Of a stretch of 64,000 nucleotides of DNA, positions 1 to 60,084 are shown one piece after another. This stretch comes from Candidatus Moraniibacteriota bacterium. Lineage in GTDB: Bacteria; Patescibacteriota; Minisyncoccia; Moranbacterales; UBA9337. Below the pieces are notes generated by a model that was not told the DNA's origin, did no database searches, and saw only the letters and a list, made by a program, of their open reading frames with translations. How positions within the stretch are numbered: position 1 is the first letter of the stretch; every line of letters starts with the position of its first letter. The stretch spans positions 13,718-77,717 of the forward strand of contig JAQVJM010000001.1 of the NCBI GenBank assembly GCA_028695135.1, written 5' to 3'. A program made the position numbers and the translations under genes.

Positions 1-230
1 GGAACTAGGCGTGGGCTGGCGAATATTTAGGGAGTGAGGCTTGAAAGGCTGTCTATATATCTCAAGTTTAAATTAACTTCAATTTTAATATATATCAAAA
101 TATATGTTTCTAGAGATAAATTTGTTGTAGTTGTAGGGACAGGTTTAAAACCTATCCCTACAAAAATATGCACACAAAAAATAATCTCTCCTAAAAGCTA
201 AAACCTATAAGCTGAAAGCTGTAAAAACTA

Positions 231-3794: not shown

Positions 3795-4985
3795 ATGGCA
3801 GAAAAATTTCAAAGAACTAAGCCACATGTAAATGTGGGAACGATCGGCCATGTCGATCATGGCAAGACAACCCTTACGGCTGCGATACTCAAAGTGTTGA
3901 GCTTTAAAGGTTGGGCGTCGGCCAAAGCGGTTTCTGATATCGATAATGCTCCTGAGGAAAAGGAGAGAGGTGTTACCATTGCAACCGCTCACTGCGAATA
4001 TGAATCGGAAAAAAGACATTATGCCCATGTGGATTGCCCGGGGCATGCCGATTATATTAAAAACATGATTACCGGAGCGGCTCAGATGGACGGAGCGATC
4101 CTAGTTGTCAGTGCGACTGACGGACCCATGCCTCAGACAAGAGAGCATATCCTTTTGGCCAAGCAAGTGGGAGTTCCAAATATAGTAGTCTTTATAAATA
4201 AGGTTGATATGGTGGATGATCCGGAACTGATTGATCTGGTTGAGGAAGAAGTGAAAGAGCTTCTTTCCAAATATGAATTCGACGGAGAAAACGCTTCTAT
4301 AATAAGAGGTTCCGCTCTTAAGGCGCTTGAATCATCCAGCGCTGACGATGAAGCAGCTAAACCGATTTTTGATTTGATAAAGGCTTTGGATGAAAAAATT
4401 CCCGAACCTAAAAGAGACACTGAGAAACCTCTACTTATGCCTATTGAAGATATCTTTTCGATTGAAGGAAGAGGAACTGTGGCTACGGGAAGAATTGAAA
4501 GGGGCGTTATAAACTTAAACGATGAAATAGAAATAGTCGGACTTAGAGACACGCAAAAAACGACTGTTACCGGAATTGAAATGTTTAACAAACAACTGGA
4601 CAAAGGAGAAGCTGGAGATAATGCCGGAGTTCTTCTTCGCGGAACTAAAAAAGAGGACATAGAGAGAGGGCAGGTCATTGCAGCTCCCGGATCGATTACC
4701 CCGCATACTGAATTTGAGGGAGAAGTTTACGTTCTCACCAAAGAAGAAGGCGGAAGGCATACTCCTTTTTTCAAGGGATATAAGCCCCAATTCTACATCC
4801 GAACCACTGATGTTACCGGAGAAGTCGAGCTTCCCGAGGGGACAGAGATGGTTATGCCGGGGGACACTGTTAATTTAAAAATAAAACTTTCTTCCCATGT
4901 CGCCATGGAGGATGGAATGAGATTTGCCATTCGCGAGGGAGGAAGAACTGTAGGCGCCGGTATCGTTACTAAAATCATCAAATAA
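3795..4985 (+). CDS. tuf: Elongation factor Tu
   Basis: [31 protein letters not shown]..., [12 protein letters not shown]; start trimmed to the ATG at 3795. Confidence 0.97.
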
Positions 4986-6911: not shown

Positions 6912-7349
6912 ATGAGTTTATTCGGAAAAAAAGGAGACAATAAAAAGGAAGAAAAAGAAGTTTCTGATAAAAAAGCGGAAGGAAGCGAAGTTAAGATTGA
7001 GAAAGGAGAGGATAAAGAGATTTCTGCCCCAAAAAAATCCAAAAAGATTTTGAATAAAGAATTGGATGGAAGTTTGGCATATGAAACTGTGGTAAAGCCA
7101 TGGATAACGGAGAAGACCCACAGTTTAATGTCAGATGGAAAATATGTTTTCAAGATAAGGAAAGGGATAGATAAAATCCGGATTAAAGAGGCGATCGAAA
7201 GCCTGTACGGAGTGGAGATTGAAAAAATCAACATGGTTAACATCCCTCAAAAAAGAAGAAGATTCGGAAGAATTGAGGGAAAGAAGTCAGGTGTTAAAAA
7301 AGCGATCATCACATTGAGAGAAGGAGAAAGCATAGAATTTTTCGAGTAG
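6912..7349 (+). CDS. rplW: 50S ribosomal protein L23 with ~50-aa Lys/Glu-rich N-terminal extension
   Basis: C-terminal 95 aa match L23 (YETVVKPWITEKTHSL...FKI...KIRIKEAIESLYGVEIEKINMVN); N-terminal KKEEKEVSDKKAEG... low-complexity extension. Confidence 0.88.
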   Translation: MSLFGKKGDNKKEEKEVSDKKAEGSEVKIEKGEDKEISAPKKSKKILNKELDGSLAYETVVKPWITEKTHSLMSDGKYVFKIRKGIDKIRIKEAIESLYGVEIEKINMVNIPQKRRRFGRIEGKKSGVKKAIITLREGESIEFFE

Positions 7350-7451
7350 ATCATGCGGATAAGGATATGAATCGAATCCGAATGATATTCCGATGCAATA
7401 AATATGATTCGTATCACATAACTCGCATATAATTAGAATCAAAATTAGCAT

Positions 7452-7778
7452 ATGTCAAGAAGTTTAAAGAAAGGTCCTTATGTAGATGAAAGATTGATGA
7501 AAAAAATCAAGGACAAACAACCTGGTGACAAGAAGCCGATCAGGACATGGTCGAGAGCTTGCACTATTGTGCCGGAGATGGTGGGTTTTGTATTAGAAGT
7601 GCATAATGGAAGAAAATTTGTCGAAGTCAGTGTTATTGAAGAAATGGTCGGCCATAAATTGGGAGAATTTGCCCACACCAGAACATTCTTGAGACACGGA
7701 GGAAAGATCCAGAAGGAATTAGAATTAGCGGCCAAACAGAAAGAAATCGATTCCGCCAAGGCTGCCAAGACAGAATAA
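7452..7778 (+). CDS. rpsS: 30S ribosomal protein S19
   Basis: [19 protein letters not shown]...[19 protein letters not shown]...HNGRKFVEV...[16 protein letters not shown], canonical S19; note it precedes rplV and rplB (non-canonical order). Confidence 0.93.
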
Positions 7779-7806
7779 TCCCTAAGAAATTTCATATAAA
7801 TTAGCA

Positions 7807-7857
7807 GTTCGCCCGCTTGCGATCCATTCGCATAAGCGTCGCGGGCAGATGAGAATA
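7807..7857 (+). repeat. Copy 1 of a ~50-bp direct repeat / leader hairpin element (gcccgc...cgcataagcg...gcgggc) immediately upstream of rplV
   Basis: agttcgcccgcttgcgatccattcgcataagcgtcgcgggcagatgagaata vs copy 2 at 8550-8600 (~85% identity); both end 3 nt before the start codon; forms nested stem gcccgc/gcgggc. Confidence 0.7.
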
Positions 7858-7859
7858 AC

Positions 7860-8411
7860 ATGAAAGTCAAAGTTAAGGCAAAATTGAATAATTTGAGAAT
7901 ATCCCCGAGAAAGGTAAGGATTTCAGCCGATATGGTAAGAAATTGCAACGCAGGCGAGGCAATCTTTAGATTGAAAAATACGATTAAAAAATCCAACGAG
8001 CCTCTGAAAAAATTAATCGAGAGCGCAATCGCCAATGCAAAAGACAGATATGATCTGAAAACGGATGAATTGAAAATAGCAGATATCCAAGTGGGAGAAG
8101 GAATGACCCTGAAGCGCTGGACCCCTAGAGCCTATGGAAGGGCGACCGAGATTTTGAAAAGAAGTTCTCATATTTATCTGACTCTCGAGGCGGAAACGGC
8201 CGAAGAGAAAAAAAAGAAGAGCAAGAAGAAAGAGGTGAAAATTGCGGATGATAAAACAGAGGGAAAAATCGAAACGGTGGAGAAAGTGGATGTCAAAAAA
8301 GACAAGATAACCGGGGATATTAAAAAAGGACATTTTGAAGTAGAAGGCAAGAGGAAAGAAAGCAGGGAAAAAGGCTGGACAAAGAAGATATTTAAGAGAA
8401 AGTCGATGTAA
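7860..8411 (+). CDS. rplV: 50S ribosomal protein L22 with ~70-aa Lys/Glu-rich C-terminal extension
   Basis: N-terminal 110 aa match L22 (AKLNNLRISPRKVR...IESAIANA...LKIADIQVGEGMTLKRWTPRAYGRA); C-terminal EEKKKKSKKKEVK... extension. Confidence 0.9.
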   Translation: MKVKVKAKLNNLRISPRKVRISADMVRNCNAGEAIFRLKNTIKKSNEPLKKLIESAIANAKDRYDLKTDELKIADIQVGEGMTLKRWTPRAYGRATEILKRSSHIYLTLEAETAEEKKKKSKKKEVKIADDKTEGKIETVEKVDVKKDKITGDIKKGHFEVEGKRKESREKGWTKKIFKRKSM

Positions 8412-8549
8412 ATAGCTACTGCGAAGTACGAACTTATACGGATTTACGAACAAGCGCTGGAAGAATTTAAATAATTTATTTTTAATACAAGAATATAATT
8501 TGAATAAGAATTACATTTGTACATAATTTTGCGGTTCTATATGAGTCGT

Positions 8550-8600
8550 AATTCGCCCGCCTGCAATGCATTCGCATAAGCGCCGCGGGCAGGCATAGAA
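8550..8600 (+). repeat. Copy 2 of the ~50-bp direct repeat / leader hairpin element, immediately upstream of rplB
   Basis: aattcgcccgcctgcaatgcattcgcataagcgccgcgggcaggcatagaata; see copy 1. Confidence 0.7.
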
Positions 8601-8604
8601 TAGT

Positions 8605-9432
8605 ATGGCGATCAAAGTTTATAAAAAGAATAATGCGGGACGGAGAAATATGTCCGTAGTCAAGCCCGAAGGGCTTTCGAAAAATAAGCCGGAGAAATCT
8701 CTGCTAGTTGGACGCGGTAAAAAATCCGGACGTTCTGGAGGAAAGATTTCCGTTCGTCATAAAGGAGGCGGTCATAAGAAAAAATACAGGTTGGTGGATT
8801 TCAAGCAGGATAAATTTGGAATTCCCGGAAAAGTCAAATCTATCGAAAAAGATCCTTTCCGTTCAGCGTTGATAGCCCTGGTTGTTTATGCCGACGGAGA
8901 GAAAAGATATGTTCTAGCTACAGAAGGATTAAAGGAAGGAAAAGAAATAATATCAGATAAAAAGACGCCCTTTAAGAAAGGAAATAGGATGCAGATAAAA
9001 AATATTCCTGTCGGCACCATAATTTCCAATGTGGAAATGGCAATGGATGCGGGCGGCCAGCTGGCCAGGAGTGCCGGTTCGAGCGTTGTGCTTATGGGTA
9101 GTGAAGGGAGAATGGCTCAACTTAAGCTTTCTTCGGGAGAGATAAGGCTGGTAAGCAATGAATGTTATGCGACTATAGGACAAGTAAGCAATTTCGAACA
9201 CGGATCTGTCAGAGTGGGAAAAGCCGGAAGAAAAAGGTGGATGGGAATAAGGCCAGCAGTCAGAGGAACAGCTATGAATCCCGTTGACCATCCGCATGGA
9301 GGAGGAGAAGGAGTTCAAGGAATCGGACTGAAATATCCCAAAACTCCGTGGGGAAAGATCGCACTGGGAAAAAAGACCAGAAAGAAGAAAAAGCATAGTA
9401 ATAAATTTATAGTGAAGAGAAAGAAGAAATAA
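8605..9432 (+). CDS. rplB: 50S ribosomal protein L2
   Basis: 275 aa; [10 protein letters not shown]..., GRNNSG-like [24 protein letters not shown], ...HPHGGGEG; located after rplV instead of before rpsS. Confidence 0.95.
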
Positions 9433-9526
9433 CTGTTGAAATTGTGATAATTGTTGAAGATGTTACAGTAAAATAAATTAGGACAAGCAAAGCGATATAA
9501 CAATTTGGACAACTAGAACAATTAAT

Positions 9527-18707: not shown

Positions 18708-19193
18708 ATGGAAGAAGAAAAGATAAAGCCTACGAAAAAAGGAGGAAAAAATATGACTATCATATCCGTAGCTATTGTTGCAATTTTAGCAGTAATATTT
18801 TTCCTGATTAAAAGCGCTAAAGATGAATTCGATTCCATCGATATGGATATGACGAGCGATAACCTCGTCGAGAATGTCGAAAGTCTCGGCCAAGATGAGA
18901 AAGATGCGGAGGAAAACATTGAAGAGTTCGATATTTCCGCCAAGCCTTTTGAATTTTCCATCAAGGAGATCCGAGTCAAAAAGGGTGATAAGGTAAGAAT
19001 AAATCTTTCCATAGAATCCGGAATCCATGATTGGGTAATCGATGATTTTTCTTCCGCCACGAGCCAGCTTTCGGCAGGGCAGTCCGGCTTTGTCGAATTT
19101 ATTGCTGACAAAACAGGCGTTTTCGAGTATTATTGCAGTGTGGGAAACCACCGGCAATTGGGCATGGTTGGAAAATTAATCGTGGAAGAATAA
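18708..19193 (+). CDS. Membrane-anchored cupredoxin (type-1 blue copper) domain protein
   Basis: N-terminal TM helix; C-terminal ...GIHDW...YYCSVGNHRQLGMVGKLIV with His/Cys/His/Met copper ligand spacing. Confidence 0.65.
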   Translation: MEEEKIKPTKKGGKNMTIISVAIVAILAVIFFLIKSAKDEFDSIDMDMTSDNLVENVESLGQDEKDAEENIEEFDISAKPFEFSIKEIRVKKGDKVRINLSIESGIHDWVIDDFSSATSQLSAGQSGFVEFIADKTGVFEYYCSVGNHRQLGMVGKLIVEE

Positions 19194-25913: not shown

Positions 25914-28900
25914 ATGAGGATTAACATAAAAATAAAATTATTATTAATAAGCTTTTTTTTCATTGCTTCAGGCGATGTTAAGGCTGATTTTTTCGATCCT
26001 TCTACGATCTATTCTCTTCCGCCTGCCTGGGGGACGGGAAGCCTGTTCACTATCGATCAGGACACTTGGACGGAAACCGATGAGGTGCCGATATATTTCG
26101 CAGATGATCCGGCCGAAGGAGTGACTGGAGGACTCGGCTTAGCTGTTAATCCTTTGACCGGAGAATATTATGCCATCATAAAATCGGCGGATGATTTGCA
26201 AGAAGATCCTGGATATTTAGTAATTCTTGATCCGACTACAGGGGAAGCACAAAGAATAGGGCAATTTTCTACAAGAATAAACAGTTTGGCTTTTGACTCG
26301 AGGGGAAACCTCTACGGAACAGCCGGATTGGGAGATGTGGCGACGGAAGGCCTTTTTTCCATAGATATTTCCGATGCTTCTATTACCAAGATAATGTCTT
26401 TGAGTGAAAGCGATTCAGGAAGAGCTTTGGCATATAACAAGGACGACGGGTATCTGTATTATGCATATGGCGTAGATATCCCCGACTCATGGTATGACAA
26501 GTTCATCGACAAGATAGACATTTCTGATCCGGATAATCCGGCCCTAATGAGTACCTTGGAAGCAGAGCCGAATGTTAATGAACGTCCGATTTCAGCGATG
26601 GTTTACATCGGTGGCGGAGAATTTTTGGCAGGAGATACTTGGTGCTATTTGTATAAGATAGATGTTGCTACAGGTGCTCTCACATACTTGAATGAGACCG
26701 ATGAATGTTCAAAAGGCCTTGCCGTACCTTGGGAAGTGGCATTGAGCGTTTCAAGCCTGAGTCCCGCCGATAACGCGGAAAATGTTTCAACTGGCTCAGA
26801 TTTGGAAATCGTTTTTGGCGATAACGCTTATCAAGGAACAGGCAATATAGTCGTGAAGAAGAGGGGTGATGATTCCGTCGTAGAGACGATAGATGTCTCA
26901 TCGTCCGATGTCACGGGCTGGGGAAGCGCAACTTTGTCGATTGATTTGCAGGACAATCTTCCTGCCAGCACCCACCTTTATGTGAATATCGATTCGGGAG
27001 CGATAAAGAATGCGGATGACGATGATTTTTCGGGAATATCGGACACGACAACTTGGAATTTCACTACCGATAATATAATTATTGAGACAGTTCCTGACGG
27101 AGAATGCTATGAGGTCGGGTCGGCCGAAGCTAGCCAGCCGGCTGACACCGTTCTAGAATATTCAAATGATGATCAGTCGTCCTGGACATATGCTCCGGTA
27201 GATCAAGGAGATGGAGGAGATTGCAATGTGACGGATATCCGTCTCACGTTGGACAGCCAATCTGACTCCGTGGGGGAAGATCTGGAGGCTGAATTTGTGG
27301 GAACTGTCTCGGACACAGAAGTTATCAGCAGTGGTGATGGCGGTGTAGATCTTTTGGAAAATAATCATGGAGCTTATGCTATCGTTACTGAGGAATCTTG
27401 GACTTATAATGTCGGCTATGACATTGAGATCGGAAGCACGGGAGATATTTATACAACTGGAGATTTTGAGGGCGTTACAGATTTTGATCCGACAGATGGT
27501 GAAGATATCCGCACGCCTTATTCAGGTACAGACGTATTTATCACAAAATTCAACGCGGATGGGACTTATGGGTGGACAAGAAACTTCCCGGGGGCTACAG
27601 GAGATCTAAAGCATGGCATGGCACTGGATAGTTCCGATAATGTTTATGTCGGAGGAGGATTTCAAGGAACGGTTGATTTTGACGATGCTGGAGGAACAGA
27701 TGAACACATTTCAGTCGGCTCTAGCGATACTTTTCTTACGAAATATAATTCGGACGGTTCATACGGCTGGACGATCACTTTTGGCGCAACTCAAATAGGA
27801 GGTGTTGCTGTGGATGATTCAGATAATATCTATATCACAGGGGAGTTCAGCCTGACTGCGAATTTTGACGGTACCGGTACTGGTCCGGATGAGCATACCT
27901 CTGTCGGAGACGAAGATATATTCATAACAAAATATAACTCGGACGGTTCATACGGCTGGACAAGAACTTTCGGCGGAACAAACGATGATAGAGGTTATGG
28001 AATTTCCATAGATAGTTCAGGAAGCGTTTTTGCAACCGGTTTTTTTCTGAACACGGTAGATTTTGATGGCACTGACGGAGTGGACAACCACACTTCTTCT
28101 GGCAGTCTTGATACTTTCATAACTAAATATAATCCTGATGGATCATACGTCTGGACCAGAACATTCGGTCCGGATATCGGTTATCAGATCGCTAATGACA
28201 GTTACGGAAATATTTTTGTAGTCGGAAGTTTTTTCGGTTCCCCGGATTTTGATGCCTCCGAACTGACGGAAGATATTCACACATCTGAGGGTTATGAGAA
28301 CGGCTTTATCACTAAATATAACAATGACGGATCATACGGCTGGACGAGGACATTTGGTGAATATGATGAAGATTTTGGATACGGAGTCGCAACGGATGAT
28401 TCCGGCAATGTCTTCATAACAGGAAGCTTTTTTGATACGGTCAATTTTGACGATACCGGCGGAACAGATGAGCATACCTCTGCCGATGATAGTGATATAT
28501 TCATCACCAAATATGATGCTGATGGATCATACGGTTGGACGAGGACTTTCAGCGGTGCGACAGGATATGACGAAGGCTATGACATCGCTACGGATGGTGA
28601 TAATGTTTTTGCAACCGGATATTTCTTAGGCGCGGTCGACTTTGATGATACGGGCGGAGAGGATATCGTTACAACTCCTTCAAATACTATAACCGGCGGT
28701 TTTATAGTCAAATATGCTAATGATGGATCATATGGAACGATATACTCAAAATATTCATTAAGCGGGACTTATGAAACTTCGATAGCCCCCTCATCTTTAT
28801 TGGCCTGGGATAGTTTGGAAATATCCCAAACGACTCCGGCCGGCACGGAAATCGAATATACAATCCTTGACAACACATGCAATAGCATATTGGTCGGACC

Positions 28901-31484
28901 GACGACCGAAACTTCCATAGATATATCTTCTATCGGAATCAGTGAGGATGAATTGTGTCTGAGGGCATCTTTTTCCACTACTGATTCTACGATAACAGGC
29001 GAACTGGAGAGTTGGACCGTCGATTATGAGACAGAGAGAAGCCTTGCGAGCTTCGATTATTCCACCGTAAGCGAAGATGAGCCTGCAGGCAACAGCGCTC
29101 CGACAGACATCTCTCTTTCAATCGATGCGGTTGATGAAGGAGTGGATATCGGCACCGTTGTCGGAACCCTTTCCACCACTGACGCGGACGGGGGGGATAC
29201 GCATACCTATTCATTCGCTTGTGCTACTCCTGGGGCGGATGATGCCAGCTTCCAGATCTCAGGATCGGATCTTTTGACTGATGAAGTTTTTGATTATGAA
29301 ACTAAGACCAGTTATGCTATTTGCATAAGGGCAGATGATGGCAATGGAGGAATCTATGACAAAAATTTCACGATAAATATTACGGATGTGGATGAAAATG
29401 GCAACGATGACACTGACGACACCGACGGAGAAGACGAAGATGAAGATGAAGATGACGACGAATACATAAACCTAAAAAGTTCCAAAGGCGGAAAACTGAC
29501 TTTTGACGTAAAAATTCCGAAAGACACAAAGGTCAAATCGGATTCCATCAAAGAATCCAAGGATGAATCGACAGAAATAAGGAATGTCGGCATCAAGACC
29601 AAAAAAGACAAAAAAGTCAAAGGGGAGCTCACCATAAAAGATAAGAAGGAAAAACCGGAGGATGTCGTCTTTCCGGAAGAGGTGGACCAGTGCACCCCCT
29701 ATCAGATCTTGGACATAGACGCGGAATTTTCCGATAAGGACATCAAGAAAGCGGAACTGACTTTCCGCGTCCCCAAGGGCTGGCTCAAGAAATACGACAG
29801 GGAAACCATGACTTTCGTCATAGGCAAGAAAGCGGCCAACGAGAAGATGCTTGAAAAGAACAAATGGGCCATCGTCCTTTCAAGCAGCTTGGTAAAGACC
29901 AAGGATGGCTATGATATCTATGAGGTTGAATCAGAATCGCTAGACGGCTATTGGGGAGTCTATGGATGCGGAGGAGGAGCAGGAGAGGATCGAGAGAATA
30001 GCGATAATAATAACAATAATGATAACAACATTGATGACAAGTCGCAGAAGAAAAAAGATATCGATAGAGACGGGAATGATGAGATAGCTATCGATCAAAA
30101 CGGAGATATTTCGGACGGAAACACTGACGGATATGAAGAATTCAGCGATCCAGACGGCTCATCTGACGACATCTACAAAATAGATGGGGATCAGGACGGC
30201 CAAACCGATTTCCTCATAGATACCGATGGAGACGGAAGTGCGGATGCCTATTGGGATCCAGATGACGGGATAGCGACCGATACCGGCATCGAAGAGGTGG
30301 ATGGCAAGACCGTGATTGCGATAGATACTGACGGAGACGGAGAATTTGACAGCTACTATTATCCGATAAGAGATGAGATAAGGGAAATAATAGATGTCCA
30401 ATCGAGCGAGAAAGATGATATAATTTCTTCAAATACGGTTAGAACAAGCGATGATAAGATGAATGGAATTATTAAAAATGAAGAGACGATCAGCGCTGTC
30501 TCAATAATAGGTCTCATAACGGGAGCTGGTGCGGTTATGGCTTCAGCCGGAGGAGCGATTCCTCTGGTTCCTTTTGTGCCTAATAATTTAAACTCGTCTT
30601 TTTTTTACAGGATGCTCTCGGCTTTTAAAAGGAGAAGATTTTTCAGTATTTTTCAGCTTATTCCTTTCTCGACGGCAACCTCTAGAGAAAAAATTGCTTT
30701 TCCTTTTGATAGAAAAGGAGAAGATCCTGCGTGGGGAATTGTTTTTGATTCATATACGAAACTGCCTGTTCCCGACGCGCTTGTCCAGCTGGTCGATAAA
30801 GACAGAGGCAAGATGGTTGAGCAAGTGATAACTGACAAAGAGGGAAGATATGGATTCTTAATAAAAAAAGGAGGAGAATATGTCTTAAAGATAAAGAAAG
30901 GAGAATATGAGATTAAGTCTGATGCTGGAAAAGACAGTCTTTATGGAAAAATTTACAGCGATCCGATATCTTTGAAAGAAGGAGAGGTGGCTAAAATAAA
31001 TGTTGCCCTGGAAGCAAAAGGTTTCAATTGGGATGCTTTTTCTGAAAATATGCTTAAGAGATACCATTCCTTTTTCTTGAGGTCGTTCAGCTATTTTTTG
31101 GATACGGTTTACATTTTAGGATTTCTTTTTTCAATATATGCTGTCATGAACTATCCGAATCTCATAAATTATATAATTTTAATATTATATATCGGATTGC
31201 TTGCCTATAAGCTTGTAAAATACTATTCGGCTAAAAAATTCGGTACAATCATAGGCAAAGAAAGCGGGAGGCCTCTTCCTTTCGCTGTCATAGAATTATA
31301 TGACAAGATTACCAAGCAAAGACTGAATTTTACGGTTTCGGATCTCTTGGGAAGATACTACCTTTTGGCTGATAATGGCGAATATATCATCAGAATTAAA
31401 TACTCAAGTAATTCGGAAGATTTTGAGGGAGAAGATAAAATAATCATAAAAGACGGAATTTTTAAGAAGGACTTAGTTGTTTAG
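25914..31484 (+). CDS. Giant secreted surface protein 1 (1856 aa)
   Basis: Signal peptide; SBBP beta-propeller repeats; Ig-like (Big_5-like) domain; cadherin-like repeat; poly-Asp/Glu tract; Ca-binding DxDxDG-type repeats; C-terminal TM/carboxypeptidase-regulatory-like module shared with protein 2. All read from the translation. Repeats are TKYNSDGSYGWTRTFGG..., Ig-like region is SLSPADNAENV...LYVNIDSGAI, cadherin-like stretch is DIGTVVGTLSTTDADGGDTHTYSF, Ca-binding repeats are DTDGDGSADAYWDPDDG. The C-terminal module has a ~330-aa counterpart in the downstream gene. Confidence 0.75.
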   Translation: MRINIKIKLLLISFFFIASGDVKADFFDPSTIYSLPPAWGTGSLFTIDQDTWTETDEVPIYFADDPAEGVTGGLGLAVNPLTGEYYAIIKSADDLQEDPGYLVILDPTTGEAQRIGQFSTRINSLAFDSRGNLYGTAGLGDVATEGLFSIDISDASITKIMSLSESDSGRALAYNKDDGYLYYAYGVDIPDSWYDKFIDKIDISDPDNPALMSTLEAEPNVNERPISAMVYIGGGEFLAGDTWCYLYKIDVATGALTYLNETDECSKGLAVPWEVALSVSSLSPADNAENVSTGSDLEIVFGDNAYQGTGNIVVKKRGDDSVVETIDVSSSDVTGWGSATLSIDLQDNLPASTHLYVNIDSGAIKNADDDDFSGISDTTTWNFTTDNIIIETVPDGECYEVGSAEASQPADTVLEYSNDDQSSWTYAPVDQGDGGDCNVTDIRLTLDSQSDSVGEDLEAEFVGTVSDTEVISSGDGGVDLLENNHGAYAIVTEESWTYNVGYDIEIGSTGDIYTTGDFEGVTDFDPTDGEDIRTPYSGTDVFITKFNADGTYGWTRNFPGATGDLKHGMALDSSDNVYVGGGFQGTVDFDDAGGTDEHISVGSSDTFLTKYNSDGSYGWTITFGATQIGGVAVDDSDNIYITGEFSLTANFDGTGTGPDEHTSVGDEDIFITKYNSDGSYGWTRTFGGTNDDRGYGISIDSSGSVFATGFFLNTVDFDGTDGVDNHTSSGSLDTFITKYNPDGSYVWTRTFGPDIGYQIANDSYGNIFVVGSFFGSPDFDASELTEDIHTSEGYENGFITKYNNDGSYGWTRTFGEYDEDFGYGVATDDSGNVFITGSFFDTVNFDDTGGTDEHTSADDSDIFITKYDADGSYGWTRTFSGATGYDEGYDIATDGDNVFATGYFLGAVDFDDTGGEDIVTTPSNTITGGFIVKYANDGSYGTIYSKYSLSGTYETSIAPSSLLAWDSLEISQTTPAGTEIEYTILDNTCNSILVGPTTETSIDISSIGISEDELCLRASFSTTDSTITGELESWTVDYETERSLASFDYSTVSEDEPAGNSAPTDISLSIDAVDEGVDIGTVVGTLSTTDADGGDTHTYSFACATPGADDASFQISGSDLLTDEVFDYETKTSYAICIRADDGNGGIYDKNFTINITDVDENGNDDTDDTDGEDEDEDEDDDEYINLKSSKGGKLTFDVKIPKDTKVKSDSIKESKDESTEIRNVGIKTKKDKKVKGELTIKDKKEKPEDVVFPEEVDQCTPYQILDIDAEFSDKDIKKAELTFRVPKGWLKKYDRETMTFVIGKKAANEKMLEKNKWAIVLSSSLVKTKDGYDIYEVESESLDGYWGVYGCGGGAGEDRENSDNNNNNDNNIDDKSQKKKDIDRDGNDEIAIDQNGDISDGNTDGYEEFSDPDGSSDDIYKIDGDQDGQTDFLIDTDGDGSADAYWDPDDGIATDTGIEEVDGKTVIAIDTDGDGEFDSYYYPIRDEIREIIDVQSSEKDDIISSNTVRTSDDKMNGIIKNEETISAVSIIGLITGAGAVMASAGGAIPLVPFVPNNLNSSFFYRMLSAFKRRRFFSIFQLIPFSTATSREKIAFPFDRKGEDPAWGIVFDSYTKLPVPDALVQLVDKDRGKMVEQVITDKEGRYGFLIKKGGEYVLKIKKGEYEIKSDAGKDSLYGKIYSDPISLKEGEVAKINVALEAKGFNWDAFSENMLKRYHSFFLRSFSYFLDTVYILGFLFSIYAVMNYPNLINYIILILYIGLLAYKLVKYYSAKKFGTIIGKESGRPLPFAVIELYDKITKQRLNFTVSDLLGRYYLLADNGEYIIRIKYSSNSEDFEGEDKIIIKDGIFKKDLVV
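27414..28794 (+). repeat. Tandem coding repeats (~60 aa units) encoding SBBP beta-propeller blades within giant protein 1
   Basis: Recurring (F)ITKYNSDGSYGWTRTFGG...DxxGNxxxTG units, at least 8 copies. Confidence 0.6.
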
Positions 31485-31635
31485 TTTCACTTTTAATCTT
31501 TTGTGGCATGATTATTTTACATATAGAGGGAATGATTTTTTGATTTGCGCTTGATTTTATTTTACTAATTCTCTCTCTTTCTGTCTGGATATACATTCCT
31601 TTTAAAATATTTTTAATCCTAACGAATAATTTAAG

Positions 31636-34600
31636 ATGGCCGATTTTAGCGGTGAAAAAATAAATAGGAGAATCCATATCTTCTTTTTTTTGCTTTTTAC
31701 TCTATTTTTATTTGGTAATAGAGCTAATGCATCCCCAGAAGACGATTTCGTGACGACCTGGAAGACAGATAATCCAGGAACTTCAAACAACACTTCAATA
31801 ACTATTCGAACGTCAGGAGGCGGATACAACTACGATGTCGATTGGAACAATGATGGCGTGTTTGATGAATTCGGCATTACGGGAAATGTTACCCATGATT
31901 TTGGCGTTGCCGGGACATATACTATCAGAATAACCGGTGCATTTCCAATGATTCGCTTTGGGGGACTTGGGGATTCAAAAAAAATCTTATCTGTCGATCA
32001 ATGGGGCACGAACCCTTGGGTCTCTATGTCGAATGCTTTTTACGGCTGCAGCAACTTGGAAATAAATGCTATCGACACGCCGGATTTGTCAGGAGTTACC
32101 AATATGGAATATATGTTCAGAGGCGCTTCATCTCTCGATCAAGATATTGGCTCTTGGGATGTTTCGACTATCGAAAATATGTACGGGATGTTCTATGAGG
32201 CCACGTCTTTCAATCAGGATATTGGCTCGTGGGATACCTCAAGTGTTACTGATATGACATGGATGTTTTACGGAGCCACATCTTTCAATCAGGATATCAG
32301 CTCTTGGAATGTATCTAACGTTGTCACGATGTATGAAATGTTCAAAAACGCTATTTCCTTCAATCAGGATATCGGATCGTGGAATGTTTCCACTGTTTCA
32401 AATATGTTTGGCATGTTTCAAAGCGCCACTTCTTTTGACGGTGATATAAGTGCATGGAATACTTCTAGCGTCACAGACATGAGAAGCATATTTAGATTTG
32501 CCACTTCTTTCAACCAGAATATCGGGTTGTGGGACGTTTCGAATATAACATCTACCACAGATATGTTCGGGGGCGCCACTTCCTTTAATCAGGATATTGG
32601 CTCATGGAACTTATCTAACGTCACTGACATGAGAAGAACGTTTGCGGGAGCCTCATCTTTCAACAAAGATATCGGACTCTGGAATGTTTCCAATGTTTTA
32701 TATATGGAAGGTATGTTCGGGGGTGCCACTTCCTTTAATCAGGATATCGGGTCGTGGGATGTTTCCAGTGTCACCGAGATGATCGGAATGTTCAGTTTTG
32801 CTACATCCTTCGATCAAAATATAGGCTTATGGGATACGTCCAGTGTTACCAATATGAACAATATGTTTTATGGCGCTTCATCTTTTAATCAAGACATAGG
32901 AGCTTGGAACGTTTCCAATGTTACCGATATGTATAGAATGTTTTTTGAGGCAGCATCTTTTAATGGAGATATAAGTTCTTGGAATACATCAAGTGTTGTC
33001 AGTATGCGAGATATGTTCAAAAACGCTATTTCCTTCAATCAGGATATCGGATCGTGGAATGTTTCCAATGTATTGTATATGGATGACATATTTGACGGAG
33101 TCTCTTTGTCTGTCGAAAATTACGATGGTATTCTTATTGGATGGAGCTCTTTGCTTTTGCAGAATAATGTAGTCTTTGACGCAGGAGACAGCCAATATTG
33201 TGACGGAGCCGATAATCGGGCTTATATTATTACCACATATAATTGGACAATTTTGGATGACGGACAATATTGTGGTCCGGCAGAATGTGGGGGGGCGGCA
33301 AAAAATTATAAATTCGACGAAACTGACTTCGAGGGAACTTTCTGTTCGGTTGGAACGGAGGATATAGTACCGTCTTTCCCGTCCTATGGAGGAATCATAA
33401 GTTGGACATGCAACTATTATACTGCCAGCATTAGTTGTAGTGCCAGCAGAGATGCGGTCTGTGGTGCGGCTGCTCAAAAATATGATTATAGGGACACTGA
33501 TTTCAACGGATCATTCTGCGCGACCGGGTCTGTTTTGGAGATCCCAACGTTTCCCGAACTGGGTCAGACGGCATTTTGGAGCTGCATATTTGATTCAGGG
33601 GAAGAAATGTGTAGTGCCAACAGACTGGGGTTTTCCAATTTTTACTCCATAGATGATGAATATCTAAGAATGATCGACGAAGATGATTTTGCGGGATTAA
33701 CCTCGGACGAGATTGCTGTTGATACTGCGGAGAATATTTTTTCTGCTCACGGAGCGACGGTTGATCCGACCAATAACGATGTTTATGCCGTTCTTTGGCT
33801 TTCATCTAACGGGCGCAGTTTAGTTAAAATAGACATGGATAATTATGAGGCTGAATTTATTGGAACAATGAGTGATAATTTTTCAAACATCGCTTTTAGC
33901 GATAGCGGAACACTTTATGGCATAACCGGAGACGGCGCAAATATACCATCTTCTCTTTTTGAGATAAATAAAACAGATGCGTCAGTAGTGCTTCTGGCAA
34001 CGTATGAAAGAAATTGGGACGGAGAGGCCATAGCTTTTAATTTTGATGATAGGCGGATGTACAGGGCTAGCGGTAATGATATTTATGCCATTGATCTTTC
34101 TGATGCCGAAAACCTTATAGATATCTCCGTCAATAACGGGGAATTACCATGGTCATCTAATGGTCTGCTGCACAGAGGAAGAGATGACTTTTATGTCGGA
34201 GGAAGTTGGGGTGAAGTATATTCTTTTAATTCATCTACAGAAACAGTTGAATATCTGGGAGACATTAATGATTCAAAGAGTATGTTTTTTTGGCCGCTCG
34301 ATATTCGCATCAGCATAGAATCTCTGTCGCCGCATAACAGAGCGACAGATGTCGCTGTCGATACCGATCTTCGAATAGTTTTTGATAAAGAAGTTTATAA
34401 AGGCGCCGGGAGTATATCGGTTAAAAAATCAAATGGCGGCACAATCGTTGAAAACATTGACATAAACAGAGAAAACATAACCGGTTGGGGAAGTGATACT
34501 CTCCATATAAATTTAGTCAATAGTTTAGAATATGAAACATCTTATTACGTAGACATAGACAGTACGGCTATAATGGATGTGCATGGTAATCCCTTTGCTG

Positions 34601-36159
34601 GAATTTTTGGCAATTCAATCTGGTCTTTTACTACCTCACAGTATTTTGAAGATTCTGTGGAAGATGATGTGGAGAAGGAAGGTGGACCACTTTTCATTAA
34701 AATAGAAAAAATAAAGGATATAATTTCTAACTCCTTATCTATCTTAGTCAAGGTAGAAAATTATGACAAGAGAAATCTTAATTTCAAAGTGAGGATAAAA
34801 AACGTGGAAACAGGCGATACGGAAACCGTAAAAATTACGAAGAAAGTCAACAATGACGGAGAAACGACTTTAAAAATAGAAAATCTTCTTCCGGGAACGG
34901 AATATTCCTTCAGGGCGAAGGTTTCTGAGGAAGGCAAAGATGATTATTCGGATTATTCAAACAGCAGAAGAGCCACGACAGATGAAGAAAAATCGTCGAG
35001 AACATTATTTCTCGATTTAACTGATAGCTTTTCGGATTTTGCAGATAATGGTCCTGAAATTGGAGAAGAAATCTCATCTAATCCTATGATAACGCCGACA
35101 TTTCCTGGATCTTCTCCCCAAAGCGCTTTATCTAGAGAGGACAATTCCGATGTAATTTTTCATAAGAATGCCATGAGAGATTTTGTAGATGAAAATCCGG
35201 CTTTAGCAGGCGCCACAGTCGCTACGGGCTTGATAGCCGGAGCATCGGCGGCCGGAGCGGCTAGCGCAGCGTCTCTTCCCTTTTTCCCTCTTTTCCCCAA
35301 TACTTTGAGCAGAAGACTTTCTGACTTGTTTAAAATTCTTCCGATATTGGCTTCTTCCAAAAAAAGATTCGCTTTGCCCCTGAGGAGGAAAAAGAAGGAG
35401 AGATATTGGGGAGTTGTTTTTGATTCATTCACTAAACATCCCATAAAAAACGTAGGTGTTTTTCTTTTGGACAGAGAAAGGGAAAGGATTGTCGATCAGA
35501 CTGTTACTGACGATCAAGGTAGATATGGATTTCTCATATCCAAAGATGGTGAATATGAATTGATGATAAAGAAGAGCGGTTATAAAATTGAAATGAAGAA
35601 AAAAAAAGACAGACTCTACGGAAATCTTTATACCGGACCCCAATTTTTTGAAAGTAAGAATATCATAAAATTGAACATTTCTTTGAATTGCGAGGGCTTT
35701 GATTGGTCAAGATTTGCTGTCAAGGTGATCAATCAATATAATTCTTTTTCGGCAAAATTAGTCAAATATACATTGGATGTTTTTTTCGTGACTGGTTTTT
35801 CTTTCTCCACATACGCCGCCTTTATTTATCCAAGTACTATAAATATCATCATCTTGGCAGCCTATATCTTTTTTCTTGTTTATAGGATTATAAAGCGCAA
35901 TAAGAATCAGTTCGGGACTGTAACGAGCAAGGATACCGGCAAACCGCTCCCTTTCACCGTACTGGAAGTTTATGATCCTATGGCAAACCAGAGGATTGCC
36001 TTTACTGTCTCTGATATTCTGGGAAGATATTATTTGCTGATAAATAATGGAAGTTATATCCTTAAGGTGAAAGCGGTCAATACGGAAGGAGAAACTTTTG
36101 AGGGGCAGGATAAAATAAGCGTAGAAAACGGAGTATTGAAAGAAAGCATCTCAATTTGA
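31636..36159 (+). CDS. Giant secreted surface protein 2 (1507 aa)
   Basis: Signal peptide; ~13 DUF285-type 26-aa repeats; Cys-rich region; beta-propeller-like region; Ig-like (Big_5-like) domain; FN3-like domain; C-terminal TM/carboxypeptidase-regulatory-like module shared with protein 1. DUF285 repeat unit is [25 protein letters not shown]; Ig-like region [12 protein letters not shown]...[10 protein letters not shown] is homologous to protein 1; the C-terminal module aligns along its length with the protein 1 C-terminus. Confidence 0.75.
32086..33091 (+). repeat. ~13 tandem 78-bp coding repeats (DUF285-like [20 protein letters not shown] units)
   Basis: Near-identical 78-bp units (e.g. tcctttaatcaggatat(t/c)gg(c/g)tc(a/g)tgg(a/g)a...) visible directly in the nucleotide sequence. 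Confidence 0.8.
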
Positions 36160-49431: not shown

Positions 49432-50025
49432 TTACCCGATTAAATTTTCCAATTTATTCGCCAAATCTTTTATTTTTTCAAGCTCTTCTTCTGAAAATTC
49501 TTGCAAAATGAATTTGTTTCCGGGGACTTGACGCGATTGCCTGCCTCCTTTTTTCTCCACGCCGATGCGGATCCTTTTGAATTCTTGGGTTCCGAGTCTA
49601 TCGATAATATTTTGTATGCCATTGTGTCCGGCGGATCCGGAATTTTCTGAAATTTTAAAATTTCCTACCTTTATATCCAAATCATCGTGGATGACGGTTA
49701 TATTTTTAGGAGGTATCTTATAAAAATCCATTATCTTTTTTATTGCTTCTCCCGATTTATTCATAAAAGACAAGGGTTTCATAAGAAGCGTTTTGCTGGC
49801 ATCTTCCCTTTGGAATAATTTTTTTAAAAATCCTCCACGGATATTCCCAATTTCAATCTTTTCCGCCATCTCGACGTTAAATTTTTTTTCAAATCTAAAA
49901 TCGGAAAAGTTAAGCCTTTTCTGCAATTCGTCCAGTATTATAAATCCGGCATTATGCCTGGTTCTTGAATATCTTTCACCCGGATTTCCAAGTCCTATTA
50001 TCAATCTGTGATTTTTATCGCTCAT
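49432..50025 (-). CDS. pth: Peptidyl-tRNA hydrolase
   Basis: LIIGLGNPGERYSRTRHNAGF...; 197 aa canonical Pth. Confidence 0.9.
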   Translation of the reverse strand: MSDKNHRLIIGLGNPGERYSRTRHNAGFIILDELQKRLNFSDFRFEKKFNVEMAEKIEIGNIRGGFLKKLFQREDASKTLLMKPLSFMNKSGEAIKKIMDFYKIPPKNITVIHDDLDIKVGNFKISENSGSAGHNGIQNIIDRLGTQEFKRIRIGVEKKGGRQSRQVPGNKFILQEFSEEELEKIKDLANKLENLIG

Positions 50026-50044
50026 ATATTATATTTTAAAGCAA

Positions 50045-51643
50045 TTATCGATTATTTGGAACTAATAATTCCTTATTGTCAAAATCATTCCGATCATCTT
50101 CCATTTCTTTCATGGAATTCTCTTCAAATGAGTAGGGGCCTATCAAGTCGGTTCCCAACAAAATAACCAAATCGAATCCCTCTGTTTCGTTTTCAGATAA
50201 TGAATATTTTTCATTTAATGTTGCTGGAAGTTTTTTGATCAATTCATCCAGAGTGAATGGGACTTGTCCATTTGTCATATCGATAATCTGTGTCGAGCTT
50301 ACCAATTTGGTCCTATCTCCCTGTAGGATGCCTATGTTTTTGATTTTCAATTTATCCTTGATAAGGCTGTTTATTTTTTCCAATAATTCCGGACTTCCGC
50401 TTTGGTTTATGATCGCAATATTGACTTCTTCCTTTTCAATCTCTTCCCTTCTTCTTTCCACTTCGTTGAGGTTAAAAATATTTTGGGCAAGTTCTTGGAT
50501 TTCGCTGTAATTTCCTACTCGAGGCACAAGGATGAAAGCGCGCATATTTTCATGATATATGTGCGAAACTTTTAGCAAGCTGTCCTTTTTCCATGCATCG
50601 ACGACCACATTATTGATATTTTGAGTATCCAGCTCTCTGGATAATTTCAGAAAACTTTCCATTTCCTCCAAGGAAATGTCGGTTTTTATATTTTCTCCCA
50701 GAGTATTGAGAATATCGTTTATCGCGAAAGGATTGAGGAGAACCTTTGTCGAAAATATCCTGTTTTTTATCGCCTGCATGACCTGCTGCTGTCTCTTGGC
50801 TCTTCCAAAATCCCCCTCGGGATCATTATGGCGTTCGCGGGCGTATTTAAGAGCCGTAGACCCGTCAAGCAGATGAGTTCCTTTTTCGAGAGCGAATAGC
50901 TCATAGCTGTAGTTGGGTCCCGGATAGTTGGGATCGTAAATATCTCTCTCATTATTTACGATTATCCCATCAATATCATCGATAAACTTTTCAAAGCCCG
51001 CGAAACTGGCTACGAAATAATAATTTATTTCAAGTCCGGTAATTTTTTCAACAGTTTTTTTAAGCGGATTTACACCTTTATTGTCGGCTAGTCCGTATTT
51101 GTAAATAGAGTTTATTTTTGCGTTGTATCCGGATTCGGGAATTTCCACGTAAAGATCTCTGGGAAGAGACAATAGGGCCGTTTTTTTATTTTTCGTATCA
51201 ATACTGGCTATCATTATCGTATCGGTCAAGCTTCCCCCGGCGCGTCCTTCTCCGGCGATTCCCAAAAGAAGAATGTTTATTCTTCCCTGATTTTCACCCC
51301 TAAGTTCAGCTCTGTCTTTCGCCGCCATTTTTGAAATGACGCTAAAAGCAGAAGGATTTTCTCCATTGCTTATTATTATTTTTGAACTTACTGAGCCTAT
51401 TTTCCAAAAAAAATATATCCCAGTGGCAGAAATTGACAAAAATAAAGCAGAAATTACAAAAACAAGTGTTTTTTTAAAAAAGGCGCCCTTTTTCTTTTCG
51501 GTTTTATCGGGGATAGGGTTGTTTTCAAATAACCGGGAGCCGTCAAAATCTTTCCGGATGTCCGGGTTTTTGCTGTAATTCGGACCATAACCATAAGCGG
51601 GAACGGTCTTTCTAATTTTGGGTCTTCTTATTATCCCGTCCAT
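50045..51643 (-). CDS. LytR-CpsA-Psr (LCP) family cell-envelope phosphotransferase
   Basis: N-terminal TM; ...INILLLGIAGEGRAGGSLTDTIMIASIDTKNKKTALLSLPRDLYV... LCP core. Confidence 0.75.
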   Translation of the reverse strand: MDGIIRRPKIRKTVPAYGYGPNYSKNPDIRKDFDGSRLFENNPIPDKTEKKKGAFFKKTLVFVISALFLSISATGIYFFWKIGSVSSKIIISNGENPSAFSVISKMAAKDRAELRGENQGRINILLLGIAGEGRAGGSLTDTIMIASIDTKNKKTALLSLPRDLYVEIPESGYNAKINSIYKYGLADNKGVNPLKKTVEKITGLEINYYFVASFAGFEKFIDDIDGIIVNNERDIYDPNYPGPNYSYELFALEKGTHLLDGSTALKYARERHNDPEGDFGRAKRQQQVMQAIKNRIFSTKVLLNPFAINDILNTLGENIKTDISLEEMESFLKLSRELDTQNINNVVVDAWKKDSLLKVSHIYHENMRAFILVPRVGNYSEIQELAQNIFNLNEVERRREEIEKEEVNIAIINQSGSPELLEKINSLIKDKLKIKNIGILQGDRTKLVSSTQIIDMTNGQVPFTLDELIKKLPATLNEKYSLSENETEGFDLVILLGTDLIGPYSFEENSMKEMEDDRNDFDNKELLVPNNR

Positions 51644-56479: not shown

Positions 56480-58522
<2,043 letters not shown>

Positions 58523-58556
58523 TCTTATTCAGTTTTCTTAAAGCGTAAATTTTAGG

Positions 58557-58593
58557 CAGGCCCTAGCGATATTCGGGGCCTGTTTTATTTTTT
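58557..58593 (+). terminator. Rho-independent terminator after gyrB
   Basis: caggccc-tagcgatattc-ggggcctg followed by ttttatttttt. Confidence 0.75.
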
Positions 58594-58643
58594 CCAAGAA
58601 AGTATCTGGATTAAAGACAGCGCCTCATATCTTTTGCCATATA

Positions 58644-58672
58644 TTGACAAACTGTTTTAAATTTGCTACAAT
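58644..58672 (+). promoter_or_regulatory. Consensus-like sigma70 promoter TTGACA-17-TACAAT with no downstream ORF
   Basis: ttgaca aactgttttaaatttgc tacaat; the nearest ORF on either strand starts >350 bp downstream (59026). Confidence 0.6.
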
Positions 58673-58678
58673 AGCTCG

Positions 58679-58840
58679 TCATAAATAAAAACCTCGTTCT
58701 GTAGCAGTTTTTAAAATTTTGCTTGCAGTTTGAAATCAGGCAATCCTCCTTAAATTCCTGAGAGTAAATTAAGCGTATCTAAACTTTATTATTAAAGAGA
58801 AGATGCCACTGCGGGCAAAATTTTGAAAACTGCTTTTTTA
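58679..58840 (+). ncRNA. Candidate ~160-nt small RNA or structured 5' leader (unclassified)
   Basis: ORF-free; 19-nt segment 58704-58722 (gcagtttttaaaattttgc) is the reverse complement (18/19) of 58815-58833, immediately followed by TTTTTT (58834-58839); internal hairpin tcagg...CCUCC...cctga. Confidence 0.4.
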
Positions 58841-59025
58841 GTCTGTAATAATTGAGAATTTTATCCGCCCGAATCGCTACATAAAACGTTGCGGACGGAC
58901 GAAACTGCGAATCGGTTTATAATTTATACTGACCGAATCTATGAAATAAAATGAAAATATGGTAGTATTTTATCAAGTAATAGAGTAGCAGTCAGTAATT
59001 TTGTAAGAATTATTCGTAAAAATAT

Positions 59026-60084
59026 ATGCAAATAAAGAATCTTAATATCTATTTTTTTATGCTAGTCCTCATCGGTATAACTATCCTGGTTTTTTTATTG
59101 TTTAAACCTTTCTTATCGGCGATTTTTACAGCAGCTATTCTGGCGGCGACTTTCCGTTCCCCTTATAAACTTCTGCTGAAAAATATAAAAAATAAAATGG
59201 CCAGTTCTCTCTTGACTTGTTTTTTAGTTCTTTTTGTCATCGTAATCCCTATGCTTATAGTTTTGGGATTAGTGGTTAACGAATTGGGAGGGGCTTATCA
59301 AAAATTTGTTACAAATAATGAATTTTACCACGACAGGATTTCAGAAATTATTCACTTGGTCAAGAGCTCGCCCCTGGTTCAATCTTTCAGCATGGAAAGA
59401 TTTCTTGAACAAGAGCAGATAGGAGAATCTCTAAAGACTATCAGCGGCAATATCCTGATGATTTTTCAAAAAACTTATCAGAATGTAATTGCTTCAGTTT
59501 TGTGGATATTTGTTATGTTTTTTGCCCTGTATTATTTTCTGATAGATGGAAAAAAATTTATAGACAAGATAATGTATCTGAGTCCCCTCAAAGATAAATA
59601 TGAAGGAGAACTTTCTTTTAAATTCACTTCTATGACTAGAGCTACTCTGAAGGGAACCATCATAGTCGGCTTGGTCCAGGGAATTTTAGGAGGATTGATG
59701 TTTTGGATCGCGGGGATCCCTTCTTATGTTATTTGGGGAGTAATTATGACAATTTTGTCCATAATTCCAGCTGTCGGCGCCGGATTGGTTTGGGGACCGG
59801 CGGGGATAATACTTCTTTTTATAGGAAATATCTGGCAGGGCGTTTTTGTCTTGTCTTTCGGAATACTGGTGATTTCTTTTATCGACAACATATTGAGACC
59901 CAAGCTTGTCGGAAATGACACGGAGATGCATCCGCTTTTGGTATTTTTTGCCACTTTGGGAGGATTGATAACTTTCGGAATAATAGGTTTCGTTATCGGT
60001 CCAGTTATAATGGCACTTTTTTTGTCTCTCTGGGACATTTATGGGAAAGAATTTAAGAGTCAACTGAATAAATTTAACGCGTAA
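59026..60084 (+). CDS. AI-2E family transporter (PerM/UPF0118)
   Basis: 352 aa, 8 TM, ...IWGVIMTILSIIPAVGAGLVWGPAGIILLF... typical of the AI-2E family. Confidence 0.7.
   Translation: MQIKNLNIYFFMLVLIGITILVFLLFKPFLSAIFTAAILAATFRSPYKLLLKNIKNKMASSLLTCFLVLFVIVIPMLIVLGLVVNELGGAYQKFVTNNEFYHDRISEIIHLVKSSPLVQSFSMERFLEQEQIGESLKTISGNILMIFQKTYQNVIASVLWIFVMFFALYYFLIDGKKFIDKIMYLSPLKDKYEGELSFKFTSMTRATLKGTIIVGLVQGILGGLMFWIAGIPSYVIWGVIMTILSIIPAVGAGLVWGPAGIILLFIGNIWQGVFVLSFGILVISFIDNILRPKLVGNDTEMHPLLVFFATLGGLITFGIIGFVIGPVIMALFLSLWDIYGKEFKSQLNKFNA

Follow-up and report, generated by a model that had tools for sequence, protein, structure and literature searches.

Among the small RNAs (sRNAs) of Gram-positive bacteria that use a C-rich seed are the Rsa RNAs of Staphylococcus aureus, which carry a UCCC motif in their loops, and RsaE/RoxS, which are alike in this respect. 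In cyanobacteria, the sRNA Yfr1, which is approximately 55–65 nt long and made up of two simple stem-loops, contains the ultraconserved motif ACUCCUCACAC. Yfr1, through its CU-rich motif, and the Gram-positive sRNAs, through their C-rich loops, both act by pairing with purine tracts. Almost nothing is known of RNA-based regulation in bacteria of the Candidate Phyla Radiation (CPR), whose genomes are tiny, whose regulators are few and whose ribosomes are unusual. Here, a stretch of 64,000 nt from a Candidatus Moraniibacteriota bacterium (GenBank assembly GCA_028695135.1, contig JAQVJM010000001.1, positions 13,718 to 77,717; hereafter the window, to which all positions refer unless a homologous locus is named by its L number) was analysed. 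Between gyrB and a gene for an AI-2E family transporter it includes a region for which a sequence-only reading had proposed that an orphan promoter drives a discrete, structured transcript free of open reading frames (ORFs), a candidate sRNA. The present analysis supports this proposal, since conservation across 17 species extends to the promoter, a long closing helix, a hairpin containing CCUCC and the 3′-end, and the helices show covariation. Sequence comparison gives good support to the RNA being a previously uncatalogued family, found in at least 17 uncultured Moranbacteria, specific to this CPR lineage and absent from Rfam.

Because all of the sequences are metagenome assemblies, the expression, ends and abundance of the transcript were inferred from promoter and terminator signals. 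The top-ranked promoter-like site found by a scan of the region is TTGACA-17-TGcTACAAT on the forward strand (58644–58672), which matches the consensus at 11 of 12 positions and is made up of a −35 hexamer (TTGACA, 58644–58649) and an extended −10 element (TGcTACAAT, 58664–58672), the latter consisting of TG at 58664–58665 and, separated from the −35 hexamer by a 17 nt spacer, TACAAT at 58667–58672. Hence, the near-perfect promoter that had been described after the gyrB terminator is present, and it is of the sigma-70 type. Transcription would start at approximately 58679, 7 nt past the −10 element, and the promoter geometry predicts a single-stranded 5′ leader (58679–58702), the sequence and length of which vary between species. 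The region was also said to be free of ORFs of 60 aa or more, and this is borne out even at a cut-off of 30 aa, with no ORF of at least that size on either strand from 58523 to 58938. The only AUG-led mini-ORF within the RNA (AUG at 58803, seven codons) was rejected, as it is not conserved in the aligned relatives.

The predicted 164 nt transcript folds with a free energy of −49.6 kcal/mol, compared with −27.5 ± 3.7 kcal/mol for shuffled sequences (z = −6.0; 0 of 200 shuffles were as stable), and forms a three-way junction composed of a closing helix (P1), a hairpin (P2) and a bipartite hairpin (P3). P1 had been noticed as a 5′ segment of 19 nt, 58704–58722, that is the reverse complement of 58815–58833 at 18 of 19 positions, and this was confirmed; the one mismatch is a G-U in the RNA, and the chance expectation for such a repeat is 0.13 in the window. 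The helix is, however, longer than was stated, since the inverted repeat reaches arms of 27 nt (5′ arm, 58703–58729; 3′ arm, 58808–58834), within which all positions pair when G-U is allowed, and both arms are identified by the fold, the inverted repeat and covariation. The enclosed CCUCC hairpin that had been reported is P2 (58736–58761), defined by the fold and covariation, which has the stem UCAGG/CCUGA and a loop of 16 nt. The P2 loop region reads AAUCCUCCUUAA and includes CCUCCU at 58745–58750, the same hexamer as the anti-Shine-Dalgarno (anti-SD) motif of 16S rRNA. P3 (58775–58806) consists of GUAUCU/AGAUGC, a 3×3 purine-rich internal loop and CUUUA-UUAU-UAAAG. The U-run noted earlier after the 3′ segment is a run of six (T6 in the DNA, 58834–58839) directly after P1 which, together with the base of P1, is predicted to form an intrinsic terminator and the 3′-end of an RNA of approximately 161 nt.

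The set used in searches based on GyrB comprised 67 loci from genomes of GTDB species, nearly all of them Moranbacteria/Moraniibacteriota or other Patescibacteria, with best identities of 78–80 %, which places the window in the CPR. When the intergenic region was compared to these 67 gyrB loci using blastn and nhmmer, no significant primary-sequence match was found, and the homologues within this set emerged later, via a covariance model and a promoter-plus-CCTCC pattern. The contigs that carry relatives of the AI-2E gene have ORF-free upstream regions of 450–900 nt, in which mainly the part equivalent to 58642–58862 could be aligned (67–75 % identity), the rest being unalignable. The aligned sequences have in common the promoter TTGACA-17-TGnTAnnnT, the conserved P3 and the U-run, and both P1 and P2 covary, with AAUCCUCCUUAA invariant in P2. 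A covariance model built from the first four sequences (R1) picked up distant, GC-rich homologues at three GTDB loci, the pattern TTGAC[AT]-16..18-TAnnnT followed by CCTCC yielded four more members, a second covariance model (R2) added two, and four further AI-2E-linked contigs that were examined each contained the RNA. The family thus totals 17 distinct sequences (16 species beyond that of the window) with members 160–190 nt in size and a GC content of 25–60 %. TTGAC(A/G)-16..18-TAnnnT is found in the same place in 16 of the 17, and is a perfect TTGACA-17-TATAAT in five. Conservation in relatives, which the sequence-only reading had suggested as a check, is therefore evident for the promoter, the helix and the hairpin. 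A scan of metagenomes for the pattern AATCCTCCTTAA-N(20-45)-TTATTATTAA gave 42 matches and no additions, as only three were real and all three were already known; the others are the reverse complement of a Shine-Dalgarno (SD) sequence plus the start codon of unrelated genes. Ungapped scans for long helices returned mostly noise in AT-rich DNA. In approximately 83 kb of the host genome (the window and approximately 19 kb of further flank) the RNA gene is single-copy.

Covariation of the long-range helix, a further check that had been proposed, proved to be strong. RNAalifold applied to the first four sequences gave 43 pairs, of which 10 had compensatory double changes. An alignment of the eight AI-2E-linked species, made using MAFFT and not fitted to the structure, had 96.7 % of cells paired compared to 87.0 ± 1.0 % when shuffled, and changes on both sides in 25 of 42 pairs compared to 11.0 ± 2.2 in shuffles, none of 500 of which reached this number. 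When the partners were moved by 1–3 columns as a control, 44–51 % of cells were paired and only 2–6 pairs showed such changes. All four helices are supported in this alignment: P1, with 97.6 % of cells paired, has compensatory double changes at 12 of 26 pairs, all five pairs of P2 are compensatory, as are 8 of the 11 pairs in P3 (helices 3 and 4), and the inner part of P3 is compensatory at every pair. An unfitted MAFFT alignment of ten sequences from both clades analysed with RNAalifold also recovered P1, with 9 of 19 pairs compensatory. In a structural alignment of 13 species made by hand, 95.3 % of cells were canonical and compensatory changes were present at 37 of 43 pairs, though these counts are inflated because the alignment was fitted to the structure. 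They were computed in Python; MAFFT had shifted one clade by a column when given the N-padded hand alignment.

In the 13-species alignment, G-U combinations occupy 61 cells and A-C combinations 10, and model R1 scores 163 bits on the plus strand but 39 bits on the minus strand. The selected molecule is therefore the plus-strand RNA. A 27 nt inverted repeat followed by a T-run could also be a DNA-level feature with no function as RNA, such as the remnant of a mobile element, a protein-binding palindrome or an oversized gyrB terminator. The strand-specific G-U pairing, the covariation of P2 and P3, the conserved promoter upstream and the single copy are all at odds with this, and gyrB already has an intrinsic terminator of its own on the same strand (58557–58592), made up of the hairpin CAGGCCC...GGGCCUG (58557–58582) and a U-run, which was read from the sequence and whose pairing is visible in chance Rfam alignments. 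The upstream transcription unit, in which gyrB, identified using Pfam, stops at 58522, ends at this terminator. A DNA-level repeat is largely refuted by the covariation and we regard it as extremely improbable.

The CCUCCU of the P2 loop provides the only invariant unpaired columns, in 13 of 13 aligned sequences and in 17 of 17 when the four later sequences are included. Its flanks within the loop vary (AAU, AAC, AUC, CACC), and the junctions vary in both length and sequence among the 13 species. P1 is 19–27 bp in all members, with its length maintained across species, and in the GC-rich members it includes conserved mismatches and a bulge. In two species (L067 and L021) P3 is missing, and the RNA consists of a P1 of 25–26 bp, an internal loop of 7–8 nt per side and a P2 with the loop CACCCCUCCUAC on an apical stem of only 6 bp, so that the fold is a plain hairpin and not a three-way junction. 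Hence, the core shared by the family is P1 plus the CCUCCU hairpin.

When Rfam was searched, as had been recommended, nothing reached the gathering score in the whole window or in six homologous loci, and only chance-level matches were recovered at E ≤ 10 with the intergenic region and a GC-rich homologue; no match to 6S or to any other sRNA family was found. A tRNA scan of the window found none, and literature searches on sRNAs of the CPR or Moranbacteria revealed no description of an RNA like the one in the window. These results bear on the suggestion, made in the sequence-only reading, that the terminal helix is that of a 6S RNA, which would mimic an open promoter and sequester RNA polymerase. 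Though the consensus promoter, the single copy, the size and the long helix closing the ends would suit a 6S-like RNA, there is no match to an Rfam 6S family even at E ≤ 10, and the fold is not a rod but a three-way junction with 1–2 nt on the 3′ side of the junction and no two-sided central bubble. The minimal members, with a 6 bp apical stem past their internal loop, are plain hairpins. The suggestion was thus not upheld, and a 6S-like function is very improbable.

The members of the family fall into two classes with respect to their neighbours. In class A (eight species, including that of the window) the RNA gene, the AI-2E gene and lgt are on one strand, and the upstream neighbour varies, being gyrB, rplL, a divergent LytR-family gene (PF03816) or an acetyltransferase gene. 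The downstream neighbour in the window is the AI-2E family transporter gene at 59026–60084 on the plus strand (Pfam PF01594, E = 1.4e-47). In class B (nine species) the RNA gene follows rplY (bL25/TL5) and runs toward a convergent gene, pth, on the opposite strand, with no same-strand gene downstream; a LytR-family gene lies on the opposite strand beyond pth where it was identified (L025 and L035). The window also includes pth and a LytR-family gene (49432–51643) without rplY, and the locus was therefore rearranged, with survival of the RNA gene. The 3′-ends also differ, as a U-run comes straight after P1 in class A (interrupted in L139, UUUUUUGGUU), whereas in class B a separate GC-rich hairpin and U-run follow P1; L025 has both types of terminator. 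The TGn of the extended −10 element is kept in the class A relatives that have a recognizable promoter (hence not in L136) and also in L066 and L067. Class B RNAs have in addition a small 5′ hairpin before P1 that lies outside the models and appears to covary (CUCAA/UUGAG at 7269–7292 in L025, UCCA/UGGA at 4416–4432 in L026 and AUCA/UGAU at 4375–4390 in L024).

Two further proposals of the sequence-only reading were that the region is a long regulated leader of the AI-2E gene, or that the long-range helix is part of a riboswitch-like terminator/antiterminator pairing. An RNA acting in cis as a leader or attenuator of an AI-2E-lgt operon would allow transcription from the strong promoter either to stop at P1 and the U-run or to read through. 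Consistent with this, the RNA is found 43–400 nt upstream of the AI-2E gene on the same strand in all eight class A species, and the AI-2E gene stays downstream while the upstream neighbours differ in four ways. However, in the nine class B members the RNA gene faces the convergent pth and is followed by one or two terminators, and because of their position between rplY and pth with a terminator of their own the RNA is independent of any one neighbour. A switch is also difficult to reconcile with a P1 that is constitutive at 19–27 bp, and the only alternative pairing in the window, of 58811–58827 with 58852–58868, has no counterpart in L074, the sole relative checked. Moreover, there is no sign of a ligand pocket, as the junction nucleotides vary, and the riboswitch-type pairing was not supported.

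The AI-2E gene also appears to have a promoter of its own. In the window, TGgTAGTAT (58960–58968, plus strand), which forms a second conserved intergenic block outside the RNA, is likely to be the extended −10 element of the AI-2E gene itself. Most class A species have a conserved extended −10 element downstream of the U-run and ahead of the AI-2E start (TGnTAnTAT in four and TACTAT in L137), with counterparts of the motif in L074, L135, L136 and L137, while L079 has TATACT 7 nt before the ATG. Thus, though the adjacency to the AI-2E gene holds for every class A member, the leader fails as a general explanation, and we consider it unlikely. At several loci, repeats are found in the spacer that separates the RNA from the AI-2E gene. 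In the window, three copies of CGAATC are found in 58852–58940 within imperfect direct repeats (58852–58875/58916–58939 and 58870–58884/58908–58922), and neither these repeats nor the segment able to pair with the P1 3′ arm was seen in L074, the relative compared there. In the relatives with an RNA-to-AI-2E spacer of 400 nt, a sequence of approximately 33 nt (aattttaattttgccctaaaaaataaaccctg) is present as a direct repeat (2612–2644 and 2762–2795 in L075, and likewise in L081 and L084).

The best explanation, to which we would give about an even chance of being correct, is that this is a stand-alone, structured sRNA of approximately 160 nt that acts in trans through its CCUCCU loop, most likely by pairing with GGAGG-type sites on putative target RNAs, its expression being predicted from the sequence. 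As would be expected of a trans-acting sRNA, it has its own promoter and its own terminator among varying neighbours, and it has a conserved single-stranded seed, CCUCCU in 17 of 17, on a stem that covaries at all five pairs. P1 would tie the ends together, acting as a scaffold and protective stem and, with the U-run, as an intrinsic terminator, while P2 would present CCUCCU as the functional site for recognition in trans. The simplest partner would be a purine tract of the GGAGG type on another RNA.

Such tracts are rare upstream of starts because the ordinary genes of these hosts lack SD sites, and they could hence mark a few specific targets. In the window, a 4 nt SD core is found at −18 to −4 in only 1 of 57 ORFs, compared to 10–11 of 57 in coding controls. 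The upstream regions are 42 % A, and these A-rich starts (the start codons of the window include those at 880, 3768, 20507, 53821 and 59026) resemble the 'Kozak-like' starts of Bacteroidetes. In the GC-rich relatives, the starts of gyrB, rplY, pth and nearby genes are likewise SD-free. Among Parcubacteria, the share in which Tsurumaki et al. (2022, PMC9297842) detected CCTCCT, the anti-SD motif, at the 3′-end of 16S rRNA was only 48 %, and SD/anti-SD biology is therefore altered in this group. A search for a 16S rRNA gene in 10 kb of contig to either side of the window found protein genes only. The sole clear canonical ribosome-binding site in the window (18736–18755) is an AAGGAGG 7 nt before the ATG at 18753 of a cupredoxin/plastocyanin-like gene (PF00127). 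This gene may have been acquired horizontally, or may be a candidate target of the CCUCCU loop. A further purine tract, TTTAGGAGGAAT (56483–56494), is located 28 nt upstream of the gyrB ATG (56520) beside a −10-like TATATAAT, and is too far away to be an SD sequence. The AGGAGG upstream of gyrB is not conserved, the relatives having only a G-rich patch.

Several observations weigh against a trans-acting, base-pairing sRNA. No conserved complementary target of the loop was found in the 7–83 kb searched per genome, and an 11 of 12 complement to the loop that lies inside the AI-2E gene (59685–59696) corresponds to an L-G-G codon run and changes synonymously in relatives. One member, L136, is without a recognizable promoter, and the pair counts that cover the most species are those inflated by fitting. 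A perfect helix of 27 bp is unusual for an sRNA that acts by base pairing and would be a substrate for RNase III. In addition, the RNA is just upstream of the AI-2E gene on the same strand in 8 of 8 class A members, and in this class it may have a cis or local role on that gene.

A duplex of 26–27 bp is long enough to be cut by RNase III, and P1 could itself be the functional part of a processed precursor or double-stranded RNA effector, from which cleavage would free a core of approximately 80–100 nt or small duplexes. The window's P1, at 26–27 bp, is perfect and, as noted above, its length is kept across species, but the GC-rich members carry their conserved mismatches and bulge in this helix. 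This possibility, to which we assign only a small chance, is compatible with a trans-acting sRNA rather than exclusive of it.

The loop might instead imitate the 16S rRNA tail without any pairing to mRNA, the RNA being a decoy for a protein or the ribosome that titrates a ribosomal protein, a factor for rRNA maturation or the platform of the 30S subunit. CCUCCU is the exact anti-SD motif, and the loop region GAUCACCCCUCCUAC of L067 and L021 (the GAU of which forms the 3′-end of the stem of P2) resembles the 16S tail. The genes of the hosts are without SD sites for which a loop could compete, the low recovery of CCTCCT at the 16S end in Parcubacteria (PMC9297842) fits a decoy, and the neighbours are often translation genes, namely rplY, pth and rplL. 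On the other hand, the flanks of CCUCCU vary between species and no candidate binding protein is conserved beside the RNA gene. Era is the protein best known to read GAUCACCUCC, but most CPR phyla have lost it (PMC10582724), which weakens the idea of an Era decoy in particular. Overall, a decoy is possible, though we judge the odds to be well against it.

Two related ideas were rejected. A fragment of 16S rRNA was excluded because the universal 3′ sequence AAGTCGTAACAAGGTA, with up to two substitutions allowed, is absent from the window and from all loci, and a topology in which P1 encloses P2 and P3 is not that of the 16S tail with helices 44 and 45. An RNA that resembles 5S rRNA or binds bL25 had been considered because of the rplY neighbour and the three-way junction. 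However, P1 is two to three times the length of helix I, two species have no P3, no match to a 5S model was found and the sub-group to which the window belongs has no rplY nearby. Nor is there a reverse transcriptase among the neighbours (gyrB, AI-2E, lgt, rplY and pth), as would be expected next to the msr-msd of a retron.

A bolder version of recognition in trans is that the anti-SD function has moved off the ribosome, with a separate abundant RNA bearing CCUCCU that would put the old pairing code to a new use and could dock to the 30S subunit in trans or gate a few GGAGG RNAs. We view this as improbable. The family offers a handle on what becomes of the SD/anti-SD code after ribosomes have given it up, and on post-transcriptional gene regulation in CPR bacteria. 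Even as a plain orphan sRNA it is a ready candidate for Rfam.

Elsewhere in the window, the order of genes called in the S10 ribosomal-protein cluster (7400–9450; 16033–19289 in L129) is L23, S19, L22, L2, S3, which appears unusual as the usual order is L23, L2, S19, L22, S3. Two adjacent and very long ORFs of 1856 and 1507 aa (25914–36159) may be rpoB and rpoC, and if so they would be much longer than the Escherichia coli proteins, which would point to lineage-specific insertions.

Comparison with described systems indicates where the family stands. With riboswitches and attenuating leaders it shares a promoter-proximal, structured RNA that ends in a helix and U-run and, in eight species, a position upstream of a transporter gene, but its closing helix is far too long to switch, it has no conserved junction and nine members are upstream of no gene. 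With 6S RNA (RF00013 and related families) it has in common a strong housekeeping-type promoter, a single copy, a similar size and a long helix formed by the 5′- and 3′-ends, and it differs in giving no covariance-model match and in being a three-way junction rather than a rod with a two-sided central bubble. The CCUCCU is identical to that in the 16S rRNA 3′ tail, and in two species GAUCACC...CCUCCUA resembles GAUCACCUCCUUA, yet the motif is found in the hairpin loop of a separate RNA that has neither helix 45 nor the universal AAGUCGUAACAAGGUA region. As in Yfr1, a short CU-rich single-stranded motif located between structured elements is the only strictly conserved sequence across a phylum-level group, though Yfr1 has no shared ancestry with the Moranbacteria RNA and no long closing helix. 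Like the Rsa RNAs and RsaE/RoxS, it is encoded by a gene of its own, with a separate promoter and terminator, has one conserved unpaired pyrimidine-rich loop complementary to SD-type purine tracts and has no obvious requirement for a chaperone. It shares no sequence or structure homology with them, its body is enclosed by a helix of 19–27 bp, and its single seed loop is the exact anti-SD hexamer. As the Moranbacteria hosts do not use SD sequences, its targets cannot be ordinary ribosome-binding sites. It is thus a new family of a known kind, a small structured RNA with a pyrimidine-rich recognition loop, in an unusual setting.

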